Source of the DNA: an uncultured Gammaproteobacteria bacterium | GTDB lineage: Bacteria; Patescibacteriota; Microgenomatia; UBA10105; UBA927 | Reading direction: 5' to 3' | Assembly (NCBI GenBank): GCA_964609895.1 | Contig: CAZSTG010000002.1 | Span: forward strand, 3,362-67,361 | DNA length: 64,000 nt | Program-made: the position numbers and the translations under genes | Notes under the pieces: model-generated | Seen by the model: only the letters and a program-made list of their open reading frames with translations | The model's database searches: none | What the model was told of the DNA's origin: nothing | Shown: piece after piece, positions 52,505-63,274 of the stretch | Layout: each line of letters begins with the position of its first letter | Numbering within the stretch: the first letter of the stretch is position 1

Positions 52505-53308
52505 TTATCCCAGTGAAAAATGGAACAGCGACTGCGAAAGCAGCCAGAGGCCTTCGGACAATATCAGGATTGCGATGAGTATCTGCAACACTTTTACATT
52601 GAGATGCTTTGTGAGCGTTGGTCCAACGATTCCTCCCAGAAAAGCCCCGATGGTCAGATTAATGAGAAGATCGTAGGAAATGACTTTCCCAGACAAAAGA
52701 TAGATGATAAATCCGGTAATACAGATGGGAACTTCGGAGAGTGTTGTTGAACCGATGGATTTTTTTGCATGATTACCGGAGAGCACCTGTCCTCCTGTCA
52801 TCAAGGGACCAAAGCCGCCTCCGGAAATGCCTTTATTGAAGGCTGATATGATGGCAAGTCCGGTTATTTTTTTCCATGAAAAATGAAACCGGCGTTTTAA
52901 CAGAAGAACAATTCCTATGACCGTGACGAGGATGCCAATATAGAGTTTTAATATGTCTTTTGGCAGTTTTACTCCCAATACCGCTCCAACGATGGTTGCG
53001 CCGACCCCCAAGCATCCCACGAGAAGCGAGATACGGAGGTCTTTGGAAATAGAGAGATGTTTTTTTCCGTCATCACCGCTTGCCACGAGCGACGGAAACA
53101 GATCCGCTGTTTTATATTTATTATGGAAAAATGCGGCCATAAATCCGCCGACAGCTTGGGAAATCAGAATGGACGGCACAACGAGATTGGAAGAGAATCC
53201 AAAAATGATAAGGAGCGGCGACAGGATTGTCCCGTATCCCATGCCAAGCCCCGAATCAATGACCTCCATGATGAATGCGAGCACAATCAGTAACAATGCA
53301 TTTTCCAT
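52505..53308 (-). CDS. TauE/SafE (TSUP) family sulfur-anion transporter
   Basis: VLAFIMEVIDSGLGMGYGTILSPLL matches the DUF81/TSUP N-terminal signature. There are about 8 TM helices. Confidence 0.7.
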   Translation of the reverse strand: MENALLLIVLAFIMEVIDSGLGMGYGTILSPLLIIFGFSSNLVVPSILISQAVGGFMAAFFHNKYKTADLFPSLVASGDDGKKHLSISKDLRISLLVGCLGVGATIVGAVLGVKLPKDILKLYIGILVTVIGIVLLLKRRFHFSWKKITGLAIISAFNKGISGGGFGPLMTGGQVLSGNHAKKSIGSTTLSEVPICITGFIIYLLSGKVISYDLLINLTIGAFLGGIVGPTLTKHLNVKVLQILIAILILSEGLWLLSQSLFHFSLG

Positions 53309-53312
53309 ATAG

Positions 53313-55058
53313 TTATTGAATATACTGTTTTTTTCGCAGATAGTCGAGGATTACTTTTGCATTTTTTTCCGGCGTTGTCTTGACTGTGGAAAGGGATAGT
53401 TCCGGCGATTTGGGAATTTCATACGGGTCATCGACACCGGTAAATCCTTTGATGAGTCCGAGTTTTGCCTGTTTATATAATCCTTTCACGTCTCTTTTTT
53501 CGCATACTGATTTCGGCGCGTGTACATGCACAAGGATAAATGCGTCATTTTTCATCATGTGCCGCACCTGTTCTCTCGCGTTTTCGTACGGACTGACCGC
53601 TGCACACAGGACAGCACCGTTGTGTTTGACGATCTCATTTGCGACAAAGCCGATGCGGAGAATGTTGATGTCACGGTCTTCTTTGGAAAACCCCAGTCCT
53701 TTGGATAAATGCGTCCGTACCACATCGCCGTCAAGGAGCGACACTTCACGGCCGTGTTCTTTGAGCAGTGACAAGAGAATTTCCGCTATGGTTGTCTTGC
53801 CGGCACTGGGTAGCCCAGTAAACCACACGCAAAACCCTCGTTTATGCATCGGCGGGTATGCGTGAGATAAAATCGTACTGACCTCCGGTCTGGTAAACCA
53901 CGAAGGGAGCGGTATTCCTTTTGCAAGATATGTATCCCGCACCTCGGTTCCTGACAGGGAAAGATACTTCGTCCGTTTGGAAAGCGAGGCAATTTCCTGA
54001 TATTGTTTTTTCTTTGGAAGGTACACCATTTCAGAAAAAGCAACCATGCGGACACCAAGTTCCTCACTGTGTTTGGCAAATAATTCCTGTGCTGCATAAG
54101 GAGAATAGAATGGTTTTCCTTTTGAATCTACTCCCGGACCCGCATGGTCTCTGCCGACAATGAAATGATTTGCCCCGTAATTCCGCCTGATGATGCCGTG
54201 CCACAGTGCTTCTTTAGGGCCGGCCATCCGCATGGCAAGCGGCAGCAGACTAAGCATCGTTGTGTCGTGGTCATAGTAGTTTTTATATAACGCGGTATAG
54301 ATGTGCGCGCGTGTGTAATATTCCACATCTCCCGGTTTGGTTACACCGACAACCGGGTGGAGAAGGAGTATTCCTTTGACGTGTTTGGCTGCGCGTTTTG
54401 TCAATTCCTCATGTGCCCGGTGAATCGGATTTCTGGTCTGAAATGCGACCACATCAGAAGCACCCATCGTTTCTAATTGGCGTCGTACCTGATAAGGAGA
54501 CATGCGGAGGGAAGCAAAATCGTGATGTGTGGGGAGCTGTAACACAGTGAGACGGCCGGAAATATACTGCGATCCCCATGATGCCATTTCTGCAACCATT
54601 GGGTGCCTTTGATCTATTGTTCCATACACCAGTTGCGCTTCCGTTTTATAGTCCCATGGATAAATTTCTTCAATGTGCATGATGGCAAGCGGCTCATTAT
54701 TTGGACTTCTGAGACATACTTCGGTGTCAAGATGGAGTTGCTTGTTGTCACGAACCGGCAGGGTGATAGGTATGGGAAACAGCATGCCGTTTTTAAGTCG
54801 CATTGTATGGATGACTGTTTCATAGTCTGCTTTGTTCATAAACCGGTCGAGTGGGGAAAACGCACCGGTTGCCAATAGTTCAAGATCACACACTGATCTG
54901 AGGGATAATTGCAGAGAAGGGAGCGTATTAATTTTGCGTTTCAGTTGTTGTCGTTTTTCTTCCTCCGTAACGCGTAACTGAATGAGTTTGTCACCATACG
55001 CCGAAATGATGTGATTGTTTTTCATGATTGTCTGTCTGTGATTTGAGTATGATATCAT
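53313..55058 (-). CDS. Bifunctional sulfate adenylyltransferase / adenylylsulfate kinase (PAPS synthase, Sat-CysC fusion)
   Basis: [13 protein letters not shown] and GRDHAGPG are ATP-sulfurylase motifs. The C-terminal [15 protein letters not shown]-loop plus LDGDVVR and CAAVSPY are APS-kinase motifs. Confidence 0.9.
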
Positions 55059-60941: not shown

Positions 60942-62156
60942 TCATCGAGTTTCCAATATCAAGCGATAGAACGCCTCATATTTTTTTGCAATGTATTGAA
61001 TAGTAAAGAATTTTTGTGCGTAGCGTTTTGCTTGTGTCCCAATGGTGCGTCTTTTTGATTCATGAGAAAGCAAATCGTGTATTGCTGCAGTAAGTGAATT
61101 GACGTCATTTGGCGGGATGAGAATACCATAGGTATTGTTTCTGATCGATTCTGGAGTTCCGCCGACATTGGTGGCAATGACAGAACAACCTGAGGTCATC
61201 CCCTCAATCACCGTTCTTCCGCATGGTTCGGACCATAATGAGGGAACGACTACAATTTTTGCTCTGCGGTAAAACTGTATCATGTGCGGGTGTTTGTGTT
61301 CGCTCATAATTTGTACAGACTGTTCTAAATGTAATGTCTGAATCAGCTGCTTATATACTGCGGTTTCACCGCCGCCGATGAGTGAAACGCGGACGTGTTG
61401 TCGTGCTGTCACCTGTTTAATTGCATAGAGCAATGTTTCAATTCCTTTATACCAAACGAGTTTTCCAACATAGAGAATATCGATATCCTTTTGCGTTTTT
61501 TTCATATGAAACCACGTGTTCGGAACGCCATTTCCAATGATGGACGTTTGTATGTGGGGAGCCATGTTTTTTAGTTTTTGTTCGACAAAATGACTTACAC
61601 AGATCGCATATCGTATATGGGACACACACCGCTTTCGCATATATTTCTTCATCTGGCCTTGTATGTATGGTATGAGGTTTTTTGGAGAAAGAATAAAAAA
61701 GTCCTTCCGACGGATGATTTTCGTTTTGCCGGTCGGGCGAGGAATTGCGTTTTGCCGTTCAAATAACAGATCGTTTTCTGGGGAGATAAGTCCGTAATCC
61801 TGAATGACCGCAACGAATGTATGGCAAAAGTATTTCCAATACGAAAGAAGTGAAATGCTATCAACATCGATAGCCTGAATGATATCCGCGTGTTGCAGGA
61901 ATGCATCAGATTTGAGATGTTGCCGTAACAAGAGACTGCGGATCGGCAGCAGGAGCGTTCGAAAGGGGACGGGATATAAGAATGGCGTTGTTTTTATACA
62001 ATACCCGTGCACATATTGTGTTTTTTGTTTCCCACCCGTATATATCGTAATTGTATGACCGCGTGCGACTAATTCTTTTGCGACTAGTTCTGTAAGTATT
62101 TCAGCACCACCGATATATGTTGAGGGCAAATAGCTGGAAAATATCGCGATATTCAT
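60942..62156 (-). CDS. Family 4 glycosyltransferase
   Basis: GGAEILTELVAKELVARGHTITIY is the N-domain and EPCGRTVIEGMTSGCSVIATNVGGTPESI the C-domain signature. Confidence 0.85.
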   Translation of the reverse strand: MNIAIFSSYLPSTYIGGAEILTELVAKELVARGHTITIYTGGKQKTQYVHGYCIKTTPFLYPVPFRTLLLPIRSLLLRQHLKSDAFLQHADIIQAIDVDSISLLSYWKYFCHTFVAVIQDYGLISPENDLLFERQNAIPRPTGKTKIIRRKDFFILSPKNLIPYIQGQMKKYMRKRCVSHIRYAICVSHFVEQKLKNMAPHIQTSIIGNGVPNTWFHMKKTQKDIDILYVGKLVWYKGIETLLYAIKQVTARQHVRVSLIGGGETAVYKQLIQTLHLEQSVQIMSEHKHPHMIQFYRRAKIVVVPSLWSEPCGRTVIEGMTSGCSVIATNVGGTPESIRNNTYGILIPPNDVNSLTAAIHDLLSHESKRRTIGTQAKRYAQKFFTIQYIAKKYEAFYRLILETR

Positions 62157-63274
62157 ATCTTTTTTGCGGATTCGGCAATCTCTTTATACACAGCGTATGT
62201 TTTTTTGGCACAGGCAGTCCATGAATATTGTGCTGCCCGTCGTATGCCCAGACTGCGGTATTTCTTCTGTGTTTTTTGATCATTAATCAGGTGTTGTATT
62301 GTTTTCATTTCTGCAGTTGTCGGAGGAAGAGAGATGTATATGCCGTTATTTTGAACCATTTCCATAAGTGCCGGAATATGACTGACAATGACAGGACAAC
62401 CGCACGCCATTGCCTCGAGTACGGTAAATCCAAACCCTTCTGCATAGGAGGGTTGAAGAAGTACCGTGGCTGCCGTATAGATTGGAGGTAAATCCTTTTC
62501 GGGAATTGAGCCTAAGTGCCGTATCCTCTGTGCAAACGGTGATGTCTGTATGAAGGCCTCTTGTTCCTTTGTCCACGGTTCACCAACTTTTACGAGATGG
62601 AGATTCCGGTCGCGTTTTGCAAGGATAAAAAATATGTTCAGTAACCCCTCAATATTTTTATTGTAATATGTTGTGCCTACATGCAGGAGATAGGTGTCCG
62701 GAAGCGCGTATTGCTTTTTTATTCGATGCAATACCTGTACATCAGTGCAGGGAGTAAATGTTGAAGCCACCCCTTCGGGGATAACGATAACTTGTTTTTC
62801 GGGAATATGGAGATACCGGATGATGTCTTGTTTTGTTGCTTCAGATACAGCGAGTATTCTTGCAGCATGTCGCATCCGTCCGACTCTCCAACGTTCTATT
62901 GCATGTTTTATCTGTTTTTTGATCGTCGGCTTAACATACTGCATCATCCAATACGGCGCAGTGAGGTCATGGCACGTGATAATTGTTTTTTTCGGATCGA
63001 GTACTGCAAGAAGATGGGCGTTTGCGTGGTCGGTAATATGATATACATCTGCATGCTTACCAAGAATTCCCATGGGGTTAACGATATAACGGAATACTTG
63101 CCTGATTTGTTTGTGGCGCGCCGAGAATAACTTGGATAGGGCAGGAAGTGTGACATGCGAGGTAATTGACAATGGTTTTTTGAGAGAGAGCAATGCGTTT
63201 TTGAGCTTGTCCGCATAGACATCCATACTCGTCCAATGCTCTTCTTTGTAGTCAGGTAAAAAAAGGACGTTCAT
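62153..63274 (-). CDS. Family 4/1 glycosyltransferase
   Basis: EGFGFTVLEAMACGCPVIVSHIPALMEMV is the GT-B motif. Confidence 0.85.
   Translation of the reverse strand: MNVLFLPDYKEEHWTSMDVYADKLKNALLSLKKPLSITSHVTLPALSKLFSARHKQIRQVFRYIVNPMGILGKHADVYHITDHANAHLLAVLDPKKTIITCHDLTAPYWMMQYVKPTIKKQIKHAIERWRVGRMRHAARILAVSEATKQDIIRYLHIPEKQVIVIPEGVASTFTPCTDVQVLHRIKKQYALPDTYLLHVGTTYYNKNIEGLLNIFFILAKRDRNLHLVKVGEPWTKEQEAFIQTSPFAQRIRHLGSIPEKDLPPIYTAATVLLQPSYAEGFGFTVLEAMACGCPVIVSHIPALMEMVQNNGIYISLPPTTAEMKTIQHLINDQKTQKKYRSLGIRRAAQYSWTACAKKTYAVYKEIAESAKKI

Follow-up and report, generated by a model that had tools for sequence, protein, structure and literature searches.

Comparison with described systems

Rhizobia supply PAPS for Nod-factor sulfation through the dedicated nodPQ genes, which act together with nodH. 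NodPQ belongs to the CysD/CysN-CysC type, with the gene for the sulfotransferase NodH lying alongside. The locus described here lies in a 64-kb stretch of DNA (the window) from a Microgenomates-group (CPR) bacterium. Like nodPQ, it places a dedicated sulfate-activation module beside glycoconjugate biosynthesis genes and outside a cys regulon, but here the module is a Sat-CysC fusion and no sulfotransferase gene accompanies it. The SAT/APS kinase of Aquifex aeolicus (2GKS; NF004040) has the same order of PUA_2, ATP-sulfurylase and APS kinase domains, and its sulfurylase and kinase motifs are kept. The physiological role of the Aquifex enzyme is not known to be glycan-linked, whereas in the CPR host the fusion is paired with a TSUP transporter beside glycan genes.

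Two further systems resemble parts of the locus. The Synechocystis xss (synechan) cluster for a sulfated exopolysaccharide combines Wzx/Wzy-dependent machinery, as found here, with PAPS-dependent sulfation (PMC13125312). However, xss has its own sulfotransferases, XssA and XssE, and draws on housekeeping PAPS, whereas the present locus provides PAPS supply and lacks the transferase. Corynebacterium glutamicum CysZ, a genetically characterised sulfate importer of the TSUP family (TSUP/DUF81), is encoded in the assimilatory fpr2-cysIXHDNYZ operon (PMC5840216). As here, a TSUP permease is genetically linked to sulfate activation genes, the comparison being one of family membership.

A sulfate-activation operon divergent from a surface-glycan cassette

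Annotation with Pfam and NCBIfam placed every gene named in the initial annotation at its reported position (Table 1), including the Sat-CysC fusion, which scored 800.6 bits against NF004040 (equivalog cut-off 669). Alignment to Aquifex 2GKS gave 783 bits and 62% identity with every catalytic motif aligned, and two 25-residue motifs that are legible in the translation fall within this alignment. Given this identity to a structurally solved enzyme, Sat-CysC would be expected to make PAPS from sulfate and 2 ATP. An internal Met at codon 12 may be the real start. The initial annotation had a TauE/SafE transporter following the fusion; since only 4 nt separate the two genes, we read them as one operon.

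The TauE match (84.2 bits against a Pfam gathering score of 32.6) and about 8-9 hydrophobic segments describe a polytopic membrane protein that is putatively a sulfate importer. Sulfite and organosulfonate exporters are also known within the TauE family, so neither transport direction nor substrate is fixed by the assignment.

Table 1. Features of the PAPS operon, the glycan cassette and their neighbours (window positions).
Feature	Position	Strand	Evidence
Two secreted/surface proteins, 566 and 555 aa, Pro/Thr-rich linkers	49018..52452	+	convergent on tauE; N-terminal hydrophobic segment seen
TauE/SafE (TSUP family) polytopic membrane transporter	52505..53308	-	Pfam TauE; second gene of sat-cysC-tauE operon
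Sat-CysC, bifunctional sulfate adenylyltransferase/APS kinase (PAPS synthase)	53313..55058	-	PUA_2 + ATP-sulfurylase + APS_kinase
Divergent intergenic region, 60 nt, PAPS operon/glycan operon	55059..55118	.	sequence read
TuaH-like GT-B glycosyltransferase	55119..56285	+	Glyco_trans_1_4 29.5 bits (weak), TuaH 65 bits
Radical SAM/SPASM enzyme, 323 aa	56313..57284	+	Radical_SAM 55.8 bits, SPASM 25.6 bits
Wzx-type flippase	57281..58570	+	Polysacc_synt 69 bits; ~11 hydrophobic segments
Wzy_C-domain membrane protein, polymerase or ligase/O-oligosaccharyltransferase type	58587..60110	-	Wzy_C 59.5 bits; ~13 hydrophobic segments
DUF4330 protein, N-terminal TM helix and all-beta ectodomains	60114..60926	-	DUF4330 36.9 bits
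GT4 glycosyltransferase	60942..62156	-	Glycos_transf_1 116 bits, Glyco_transf_4 42 bits
GT4 glycosyltransferase	62153..63274	-	Glycos_transf_1 92 bits, Glyco_transf_4 47 bits
Further GT4, N-terminal part, cut by window end	63358..64000	+	Glyco_transf_4 33 bits

The Wzx/Wzy glycan cassette is transcribed divergently from the PAPS operon and encodes the TuaH-like GT-B protein, a radical SAM/SPASM enzyme, Wzx, a Wzy_C protein, DUF4330 and GT4 enzymes. Reading of the 60-nt spacer and a consensus promoter scan, in which sites were no more numerous than expected by chance, revealed no recognisable shared regulatory element. The radical SAM protein scored far below the respective cut-offs of all NCBIfam models that it hit; the PDB proteins closest to it are SkfB and BlsE, a cytosylglucuronate decarboxylase. 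The protein previously listed as a hypothetical membrane protein belongs to family DUF4330. Two of three reported GT4 genes are complete in the window, and the third is a plus-strand gene truncated at its end. A contig of the same organism (L093) extends the locus by about 8.5 kb, to about 72.5 kb in window positions, and contains this third GT4 gene at full length (359 aa), followed by genes for a methyltransferase, a GT2, two 11-TM proteins, a DUF1972-GT4 protein and a second Wzy_C protein.

Sulfotransferase and sulfate-reduction genes are absent from the region

No sizeable ORF in the 64-kb window matched sulfotransferase, PAPS reductase or sulfite reductase in Pfam (unannotated ORFs were followed to E<=10), and a sulfotransferase HMM built for this analysis and run without filters returned zero matches. 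The window also lacks cysH, sir, cysK and cysE as well as a CysQ-type PAP phosphatase, and no sulfotransferase, cysH or sir was detected in L093. The initial report that sulfotransferase and cysH-type genes are missing thus holds over the longer region. A sulfotransferase lies within 10 kb of Sat-CysC in only about 8 of 80 other loci; therefore, its absence here is the rule rather than an anomaly. Because none was seen and just ~72 kb of a ~1-Mb genome was read, the key sulfotransferase has to be assumed. Most likely it is a canonical enzyme encoded elsewhere in the genome.

The PAPS module and the glycan cassette in relatives

In the closest sequenced relative (GCA_049287205.1, contig of 1.02 Mb) the arrangement is unchanged, with TauE 93%, Sat-CysC 90% and the flanking genes 84-90% identical. 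In both genomes that carry the PAPS module, the gene directly divergent from it is the TuaH-like one, and the L082 TauE is 93% identical to the window protein. Three CPR contigs (L084, L085 and L086) also carry the glycan cassette, and the flanking sequence seen in them, at most 10 kb and just 2.3 kb on the upstream side in L085, contains no PAPS module. In such loci the TuaH-like, radical SAM and DUF4330 genes are conserved at 35-90% identity. DUF4330 is 90% identical in L086, and the radical SAM gene is the best conserved of the cassette (93% in L082, 86% in L086 and 74% in L084). We conclude that these three genes belong to the core of the cassette itself and that none encodes a PAPS-dependent enzyme.

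All six of the nearest Sat-CysC contexts that we examined are glycan clusters, although they differ in composition. In P0029 (76%) the fusion is found with TauE, an ABC2 exporter, GT2 and methyltransferases; in P0031 (74%) with a PMT_2-like gene; and in P0032 (64%) GT2, GT4 and Sat-CysC precede an overlapping Sulfotransfer_1/_3 gene. In P0033 and P0036 the fusion lies at the ends of glycosyltransferase clusters. A Saccharimonadia locus (L054) has sulfotransferase-CysQ divergent from Sat-CysC and adjoining pyruvyl transferase, GT2, Wzx and GT4 genes, and in Vulcanibacillus (L071) genes for a TuaH-like glycosyltransferase, a sulfotransferase, cysC and sat are contiguous. Relatives that encode the transferase beside Sat-CysC use a canonical Sulfotransfer_1/_3 protein, one CPR lineage among them. 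The sat-cysC-tauE bicistron recurs in 14 other loci of other phyla, mostly Acidobacteriota, with TauE on the same strand 7-98 nt downstream. Only 1 of the 134 immediate neighbours of Sat-CysC in the 80 other loci is a PAPS reductase.

Proposed role of the PAPS module

The CPR host, the absence of reduction genes from the window, the glycan contexts of relatives, the rarity of PAPS reductases beside Sat-CysC, the canonical sulfotransferases near some relatives and the conserved bicistron make a sulfuryl donor the best reading of PAPS, as the initial annotation had argued. On balance we favour, by a modest degree, an operon that feeds PAPS to sulfation of the surface glycan made by the adjacent Wzx/Wzy cassette, or of a glycolipid. 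Sulfate would be imported by the TSUP/TauE permease and converted with 2 ATP to PAPS by Sat-CysC, whose family and motifs are clear and whose activity is predicted. A sulfotransferase encoded outside the ~72 kb would then use PAPS for O-sulfation of a sugar in a lipid-linked repeat unit or glycolipid; to judge from relatives, this enzyme is most likely of the canonical Sulfotransfer_1/_3 kind. The reaction would take place on the cytoplasmic side of the membrane, ahead of flipping by Wzx and of polymerisation or transfer by Wzy_C. This CPR bacterium with a tiny genome, which keeps a putative sulfate importer and a PAPS synthase beside a surface sugar-polymer cluster, thus probably sulfates a surface glycan.

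The missing CysQ-type PAP phosphatase in the window and the spacer without a recognisable shared regulatory element count against this reading. Because the cassette occurs without an adjacent module in three CPR contigs, the adjacency could be incidental and the acceptor another molecule. PAPS would then sulfate a lipid, a small molecule or a tyrosine or serine residue of a protein, and its genes would lie beside the glycan locus by chance in a compact genome. Lineages have exchanged the right half of the cassette, which is 37-45% identical to L082 versus 73-90% to L086, with the PAPS module retained at 90-93%; co-inheritance of two secreted proteins with the module also agrees with a separate acceptor. 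However, chance hardly explains why six of six nearest Sat-CysC contexts are varied glycan clusters, and we regard an unrelated acceptor as unlikely.

Still less probable is assimilation, in which sulfate imported by TauE and activated to PAPS would end up in cysteine, with genes elsewhere supplying a PAPS reductase of CysH type and a sulfite reductase. CPR bacteria generally lack amino-acid and siroheme biosynthesis, which counts against this route, as do the small (~1-Mb) genome of the CPR host, the missing cysH, sir, cysK and cysE genes and the position of nearest relatives in glycan rather than cys operons. In its favour are an adjacent PAPS reductase in 1 of 80 Sat-CysC loci and the TSUP-family CysZ of C. 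glutamicum, which sits in an assimilatory operon (PMC5840216).

The initial annotation had suggested that the transferase may be novel, with 55119-56285 and 60114-60926 as candidates. Screening by profile and by structure (AlphaFold2, Foldseek) found a sulfotransferase fold in neither. The AlphaFold2 model of the first (pLDDT 92.8) has a complete classic GT-B fold, for which Foldseek placed MshA, GumK, sucrose-phosphate synthase and BshA at the top (E about 1e-12), and its family profile matches PDB 6kih. D133, K308, E311 and G316 are invariant across the family, K308/E311 forming the nucleotide-sugar motif; we consider it an ordinary glycosyltransferase, and a role as the sulfotransferase is not supported. 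It resembles Bacillus subtilis TuaH in the GT-B C-terminal domain (residues 144-336), but because its 65 bits fall well short of the equivalog cut-off (550) it is not a TuaH orthologue, and no teichuronic acid genes (tuaD etc.) occur in the locus. The second model (pLDDT 88.7) has a helix at residues 2-36 and strands alone thereafter. Neither its fold (at E<0.06) nor its sequence matched any PDB entry, and most of the protein is predicted to lie outside the cytoplasm. A sulfotransferase role for this membrane-anchored, outward-facing, all-beta protein is likewise unsupported.

A non-canonical sulfotransferase within the locus (the TuaH-like protein with PAPS in its nucleotide pocket, the radical SAM enzyme, or DUF4330 using TauE-exported PAPS extracellularly) is thus very improbable: a canonical transferase is indeed missing from the ~72 kb around the module, TauE holds the position taken by the sulfotransferase in P0032 and the TuaH-like gene adjoins the operon in both PAPS-bearing genomes, but the invariant residues of the TuaH-like GT-B are common to members with and without a nearby module, DUF4330 faces outward, all three genes persist in loci with no module in the flanks seen, and other lineages, one of them CPR, use canonical enzymes.

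The two secreted proteins convergent on tauE matched no Pfam family above threshold (DUF7305 weakly) and had no relatives in a PDB search. In L082, where they are 45% and 77% identical, both have been inherited together with the PAPS module, and they are possible glycoprotein acceptors.

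A PAPS module adjoins a glycan cassette

The initial annotation had placed a fusion of ATP sulfurylase and APS kinase, followed by a TauE/SafE transporter, at the edge of a glycan-assembly locus. When open reading frames were called again, all of those that it listed were present at exactly the same coordinates, and profile searches gave the assignments compiled below.

Genes of the PAPS module and the neighbouring glycan cassette
Feature	Position	Strand	Basis
TauE/SafE (TSUP)	52505-53308	-	Pfam PF01925, 84.2 bits vs gathering score 32.6
PUA_2 + ATP-sulfurylase + APS-kinase fusion (Sat-CysC)	53313-55058	-	NF004040, 800.6 bits vs equivalog cut-off 669
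TuaH-like, weak GT-B C-terminal domain	55119-56285	+	65 bits
Radical_SAM + SPASM enzyme	56313-57284	+	profile match
Wzx (Polysacc_synt)	57281-58570	+	profile match
Wzy_C protein	58587-60110	-	profile match
DUF4330 protein	60114-60926	-	profile match
GT4	60942-62156	-	profile match
GT4	62153-63274	-	profile match
GT4, truncated by window end	63358 to window end	+	profile match

We consider sat-cysC and tauE to be an operon because only 4 nt separate the two genes. The gene for the TuaH-like protein diverges from this operon, with 60 nt between them; promoter and terminator scans of positions 52300-56400 yielded sites no more numerous than in shuffled sequence.

Profile searches divided Sat-CysC into PUA_2 (residues 20-174), ATP-sulfurylase (183-398) and APS-kinase (407-556) domains. 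The sulfurylase motifs QTRNPxHRxH and GRDHAG and the kinase motifs GxxxxGK[ST] (P-loop), LDGD and DRxxNxxR are all present in the translation ([16 protein letters not shown] and [25 protein letters not shown], respectively), and they align residue for residue with those of the bifunctional Aquifex aeolicus enzyme 2GKS (783 bits; 62% identity). Together with the NF004040 score, which exceeds the equivalog cut-off, these results confirmed the annotated fusion and placed the protein in the same family as PAPS synthases of the Aquifex type. Judged from its sequence, Sat-CysC would be a PAPS-forming enzyme. The adjacent transporter also held up: TauE is a protein of 267 residues with about 8-9 hydrophobic segments and a profile match characteristic of the TSUP family. 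Because this family includes CysZ of C. glutamicum, a genetically characterised sulfate importer (PMC5840216), a role in sulfate import is supported, and TauE would be a sulfate importer, the alternative being export of sulfite or a sulfonate.

The genes on the other side of Sat-CysC have the composition of a Wzx/Wzy-dependent assembly system, with Polysacc_synt and Wzy_C proteins, three GT4 genes and the TuaH-like gene. A contig from the same sample (L093) overlaps the end of the window and reaches about 72.5 kb in window numbering, adding the full GT4 gene and genes for a methyltransferase, a GT2, two 11-TM proteins, a DUF1972-GT4 and a second Wzy_C protein. Neither the locus genes nor L093 gave a Bac_transf or Glycos_transf_4 (MraY/WecA) match indicative of an initiating phosphoglycosyl transferase of the WbaP/WecA type, or a Wzz match indicative of a chain-length regulator. 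Thus the locus is incomplete and essential pathway genes lie elsewhere, so that a remote sulfotransferase gene would be unsurprising.

The two 11-TM proteins of L093 (positions 2948-6500 of that contig) are encoded by a convergent pair of genes that follows the GT2 and methyltransferase genes. They comprise 575 and 588 residues, with about 11 hydrophobic segments each and no Pfam match, and occupy the position of PMT_2/GT-C-like proteins in relatives; the second Wzy_C protein (>644 residues) lies further on.

Search for sulfotransferase and sulfate-reduction genes

The Pfam scan covered almost all ORFs of appreciable size in the 64-kb window, and unannotated ORFs were searched at E<=10. At this threshold Sulfotransfer_1, _2, _3, _4 and Stf0 had no match in 55119-56285, 60114-60926, 58587-60110, 49018-50718, 50785-52452 or 63358-63999, and no sulfotransferase profile matched any other ORF of the window or L093. 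A home-made HMM, for which seven bona fide sulfotransferases from the vicinity of Sat-CysC in other loci served as seed and which was run without heuristic filters, found nothing resembling a sulfotransferase in the window; a hit to 160-564 (+) (E=0.067) had no PSB motif, overlapped a transmembrane-like stretch and was discarded as noise. A regular expression for the 5'-PSB loop ([KR][ST]G[ST][ST] type) matched once in the six frames of the window, at KTGSS (residue 251 of 275 of the DUF4330 protein), near the C-terminus and within a beta strand. A sulfotransferase would carry this loop at its N-terminus, together with a 3'-PB motif. The profile scan also detected neither the PAPS reductase gene cysH (PF01507) nor sulfite reductase in the window. 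These searches bear out the earlier statements that the locus holds no recognisable sulfotransferase, a result that extends to L093, and that cysH/cysJI-type genes are not seen.

The same annotation had suggested that the transferase might be novel and had proposed the TuaH-like and DUF4330 proteins as candidates; predicted structures argue against both. AlphaFold2 modelled the TuaH-like protein, from a 27-sequence alignment, as two Rossmann-like domains with high confidence (pLDDT 92.8; pTM 0.89). Foldseek returned 336 PDB matches (E<=0.001), those to MshA, GumK, sucrose-phosphate synthase (SPS), BshA, OtsA and PimA ranking highest; TM scores against MshA, GumK, SPS and BshA reached 0.71, and the family profile matched PDB 6kih by sequence. 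Each of the 27 homologues retains D133, K308, E311 and G316, with or without a PAPS module in its vicinity; K308 and E311 provide the conserved Lys and Glu of a C-terminal nucleotide-sugar motif. The model therefore has the two Rossmann-like domains of a GT-B enzyme rather than the single P-loop-like alpha/beta domain of a sulfotransferase, and we conclude that 55119-56285 encodes a GT-B glycosyltransferase.

The DUF4330 model (pLDDT 88.7) consists of a helix at residues 2-36 followed by beta strands only. Foldseek gave no PDB fold match below E=0.06, and no PDB sequence match was found. A single hydrophobic segment lies behind a Lys/Arg-rich N-terminus, so the positive-inside rule would put most of the protein on the outside, separated from PAPS in the cytoplasm. 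A transmembrane helix with all-beta domains is not the cytoplasmic P-loop-like fold of a sulfotransferase, and this candidate was likewise rejected.

Sat-CysC neighbourhoods in other genomes

We typed by family the immediate neighbours of Sat-CysC in 80 GTDB loci. TauE was the commonest (14 loci), followed by GT2 (8); CysQ occurred twice and PAPS reductase once. In 14 of 14 cases, mostly from Acidobacteriota, tauE lies 7-98 nt downstream of sat-cysC on the same strand (L005, L006, L008, L017, L020, L025, L026, L029, L037, L038, L041, L046, L064 and L065); most of these loci span about 11.7-12.6 kb, and they belong to phyla other than that of the host. The position of TauE downstream of Sat-CysC is conserved in 15 loci. 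BLAST of the locus proteins against the 80 loci revealed almost no common neighbours, the TauE pairing being visible only with profile methods, and a metagenome scan with TauE found four distant loci (39-41% identity) without Sat-CysC, which were uninformative. From the neighbour families of the GTDB loci we conclude that sat-cysC-tauE is a widespread two-gene module.

The nearest relatives of Sat-CysC lie among genes for glycan synthesis. In P0029 (76%) the Sat-CysC-TauE pair adjoins an ABC2/ABC_tran exporter and GT2, methyltransferase and GT1 genes, and in P0031 (74%) the gene for a PMT_2-like membrane protein overlaps Sat-CysC upstream. P0032 (64%) has GT2, GT4, Sat-CysC, an overlapping Sulfotransfer_1/_3 gene and then DegT, and in P0033 (64%) and P0036 (63%) Sat-CysC ends clusters of glycosyltransferase, methyltransferase and ABC2 genes. 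In the Saccharimonadia locus L054 a sulfotransferase-CysQ pair diverges from Sat-CysC, with pyruvyl transferase, GT2, Wzx and GT4 genes alongside. A canonical sulfotransferase lies within 10 kb of Sat-CysC in about 8 of the 80 loci, including the closest GTDB relative (Anaerolineae L001), L054 and Vulcanibacillus L071. Thus, the PAPS module has been recruited repeatedly to glycan clusters, and its accompanying transferases are of canonical kinds. Since usually none adjoins Sat-CysC, the missing transferase of the present locus is unremarkable.

Two proteins of other loci were set aside: the 323-residue protein after Sat-CysC in L054, considered as a hidden sulfotransferase, is a secreted repeat protein, and a 257-residue unannotated protein of L094 looks ATP-grasp-like rather than like a sulfotransferase. 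In the cultured Firmicute Vulcanibacillus modesticaldus (L071, positions 7876-11693), genes for a TuaH-like GT-B protein, a canonical Sulfotransfer_3 protein, cysC and sat are adjacent, which would make this organism a tractable model for whether TuaH-like glycosyltransferases build sulfated glycans.

Composition and mosaicism of the cassette

A TuaH-like homologue with 65% identity was found on a 1.02-Mb contig of a 'Microgenomates group bacterium' (GCA_049287205.1; locus L082). The arrangement there matches that of the window, with genes for two secreted proteins, TauE and Sat-CysC and then, divergently, for the TuaH-like, radical-SAM and Wzx proteins; after Wzx come GT4, GT4, DUF4330-like, Wzy_C, methyltransferase and GT2/PMT_2 genes. 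A seven-gene cassette, made up of the TuaH-like GT-B, a 323-residue radical SAM/SPASM enzyme, Wzx, Wzy_C, DUF4330 and two GT4 genes, recurs on the CPR contigs L084, L085 and L086 (TuaH-like identity 60%, 44% and 35%), with the right-hand block in either orientation.

Amino acid identity to the window proteins in two relatives
Protein	L082	L086
Flanking genes	84-90%	
TauE	93%	absent
Sat-CysC	90%	absent
TuaH-like	65%	35%
Radical SAM	93%	86%
Wzx	80%	67%
Wzy_C	42%	82%
DUF4330	45%	90%
GT4 (60942-62156)	37%	73%
GT4 (62153-63274)	42%	79%

This pattern indicates that the PAPS module is shared vertically by two close relatives, the source organism and that of L082, and that the glycan cassette has the mosaic make-up usual for surface-glycan loci. 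No Sat-CysC or TauE gene was found within 10 kb on each side of the cassette in L084 and L086, or in the 2.3 kb available upstream of it in L085. Because the cassette recurs without the PAPS module in the flanks seen, the two candidate genes are core cassette genes rather than accessories of that module; DUF4330 and TuaH-like homologues apparently co-occur on further contigs as well, to judge from contigs of matching length.

In the CPR contigs, identities across the cassette are mosaic and a block is inverted. Its SPASM radical-SAM gene is by far the best conserved (74-93%), while identity of the neighbouring TuaH-like protein drops to 35%.

Proposed role of the PAPS module

In our model, sulfate would be imported by TauE and converted to PAPS by Sat-CysC, whose family and motifs are those of such an enzyme. 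A remote, probably canonical sulfotransferase would then sulfate a sugar of the undecaprenyl-linked unit made by the GT4 and TuaH-like enzymes, or another envelope molecule, and the unit would be flipped by Wzx and then polymerised or transferred by Wzy_C. The main rival, less probable than this model, is that PAPS serves sulfation of an acceptor unrelated to the cassette. In its favour, the cassette occurs elsewhere without a module in the flanks seen; against it, the nearest Sat-CysC relatives also lie in glycan clusters. Still less probably, PAPS might be used for assimilation; among immediate neighbours in the 80 GTDB loci PAPS reductase occurred once, and the window itself gave no reductase match. 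Finally, a non-canonical transferase within the locus, in a genome of about 1 Mb with no canonical sulfotransferase, is highly improbable given the two predicted folds, whether the TuaH-like protein were to hold PAPS in its nucleotide pocket or sulfation were extracytoplasmic, with the TSUP protein exporting PAPS, in analogy to Golgi PAPS transporters, to a protein that faces outwards, for example DUF4330.

The rhizobial nodPQ/nodH genes are one system close to that envisaged in our model. The cyanobacterial xss/synechan cluster likewise joins Wzx/Wzy to sulfation, and xss has a sulfotransferase (PMC13125312). The present cluster differs from both in its host lineage and in carrying the donor supply without a transferase. 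The enzyme kinds are all known, so the advance would concern organismal biology rather than mechanism. A literature search combining CPR with PAPS, sulfotransferase, sat or sulfation found no paper linking them.

CPR bacteria (Patescibacteria) are ultra-small and mostly live on the surfaces of other cells; to our knowledge, almost nothing is known of their surface chemistry. Retention of a dedicated operon for sulfate uptake and PAPS synthesis beside a glycan cassette in a genome of about 1 Mb predicts sulfated glycans or glycoproteins on some Microgenomates, and a polyanionic surface of this kind may play a part in attachment to hosts, resistance to phages or the binding of minerals.

Other features of the window

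Elsewhere the window carries genes typical of CPR bacteria, including those for sortase, DUF11, MreB, pentose-phosphate enzymes, ribosomal proteins and NusG, and tRNAs. A pair of large secreted proteins, 566 and 555 residues long and with Pro/Thr-rich linkers, is encoded at positions 49018-52452; one contains a Cys-rich region and matches DUF7305 weakly, and no relatives of either were found in Pfam or the PDB. In L082, where their counterparts share 45% and 77% identity, both have been co-inherited with the PAPS module; they are possible glycoprotein substrates. The stretch between tRNA-Tyr/tRNA-Thr and these two genes encodes a regulator of the ArsR family (47632-47955, +) and an IS200-like Y1 transposase (47980-48768, -) whose N-terminus carries a long extension. 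At roughly this position, about 5 kb from its PAPS module, L082 encodes a further sulfur-metabolite enzyme, a ComB-like 2-phosphosulfolactate phosphatase (PF04029). A HIT-superfamily protein resembling GalT and Ap4A phosphorylase, with DUF4921/DUF4931 matches, is encoded at 26548-27414 (+), 26 kb from the PAPS module; its branch also contains enzymes with ADP-sulfurylase activity.
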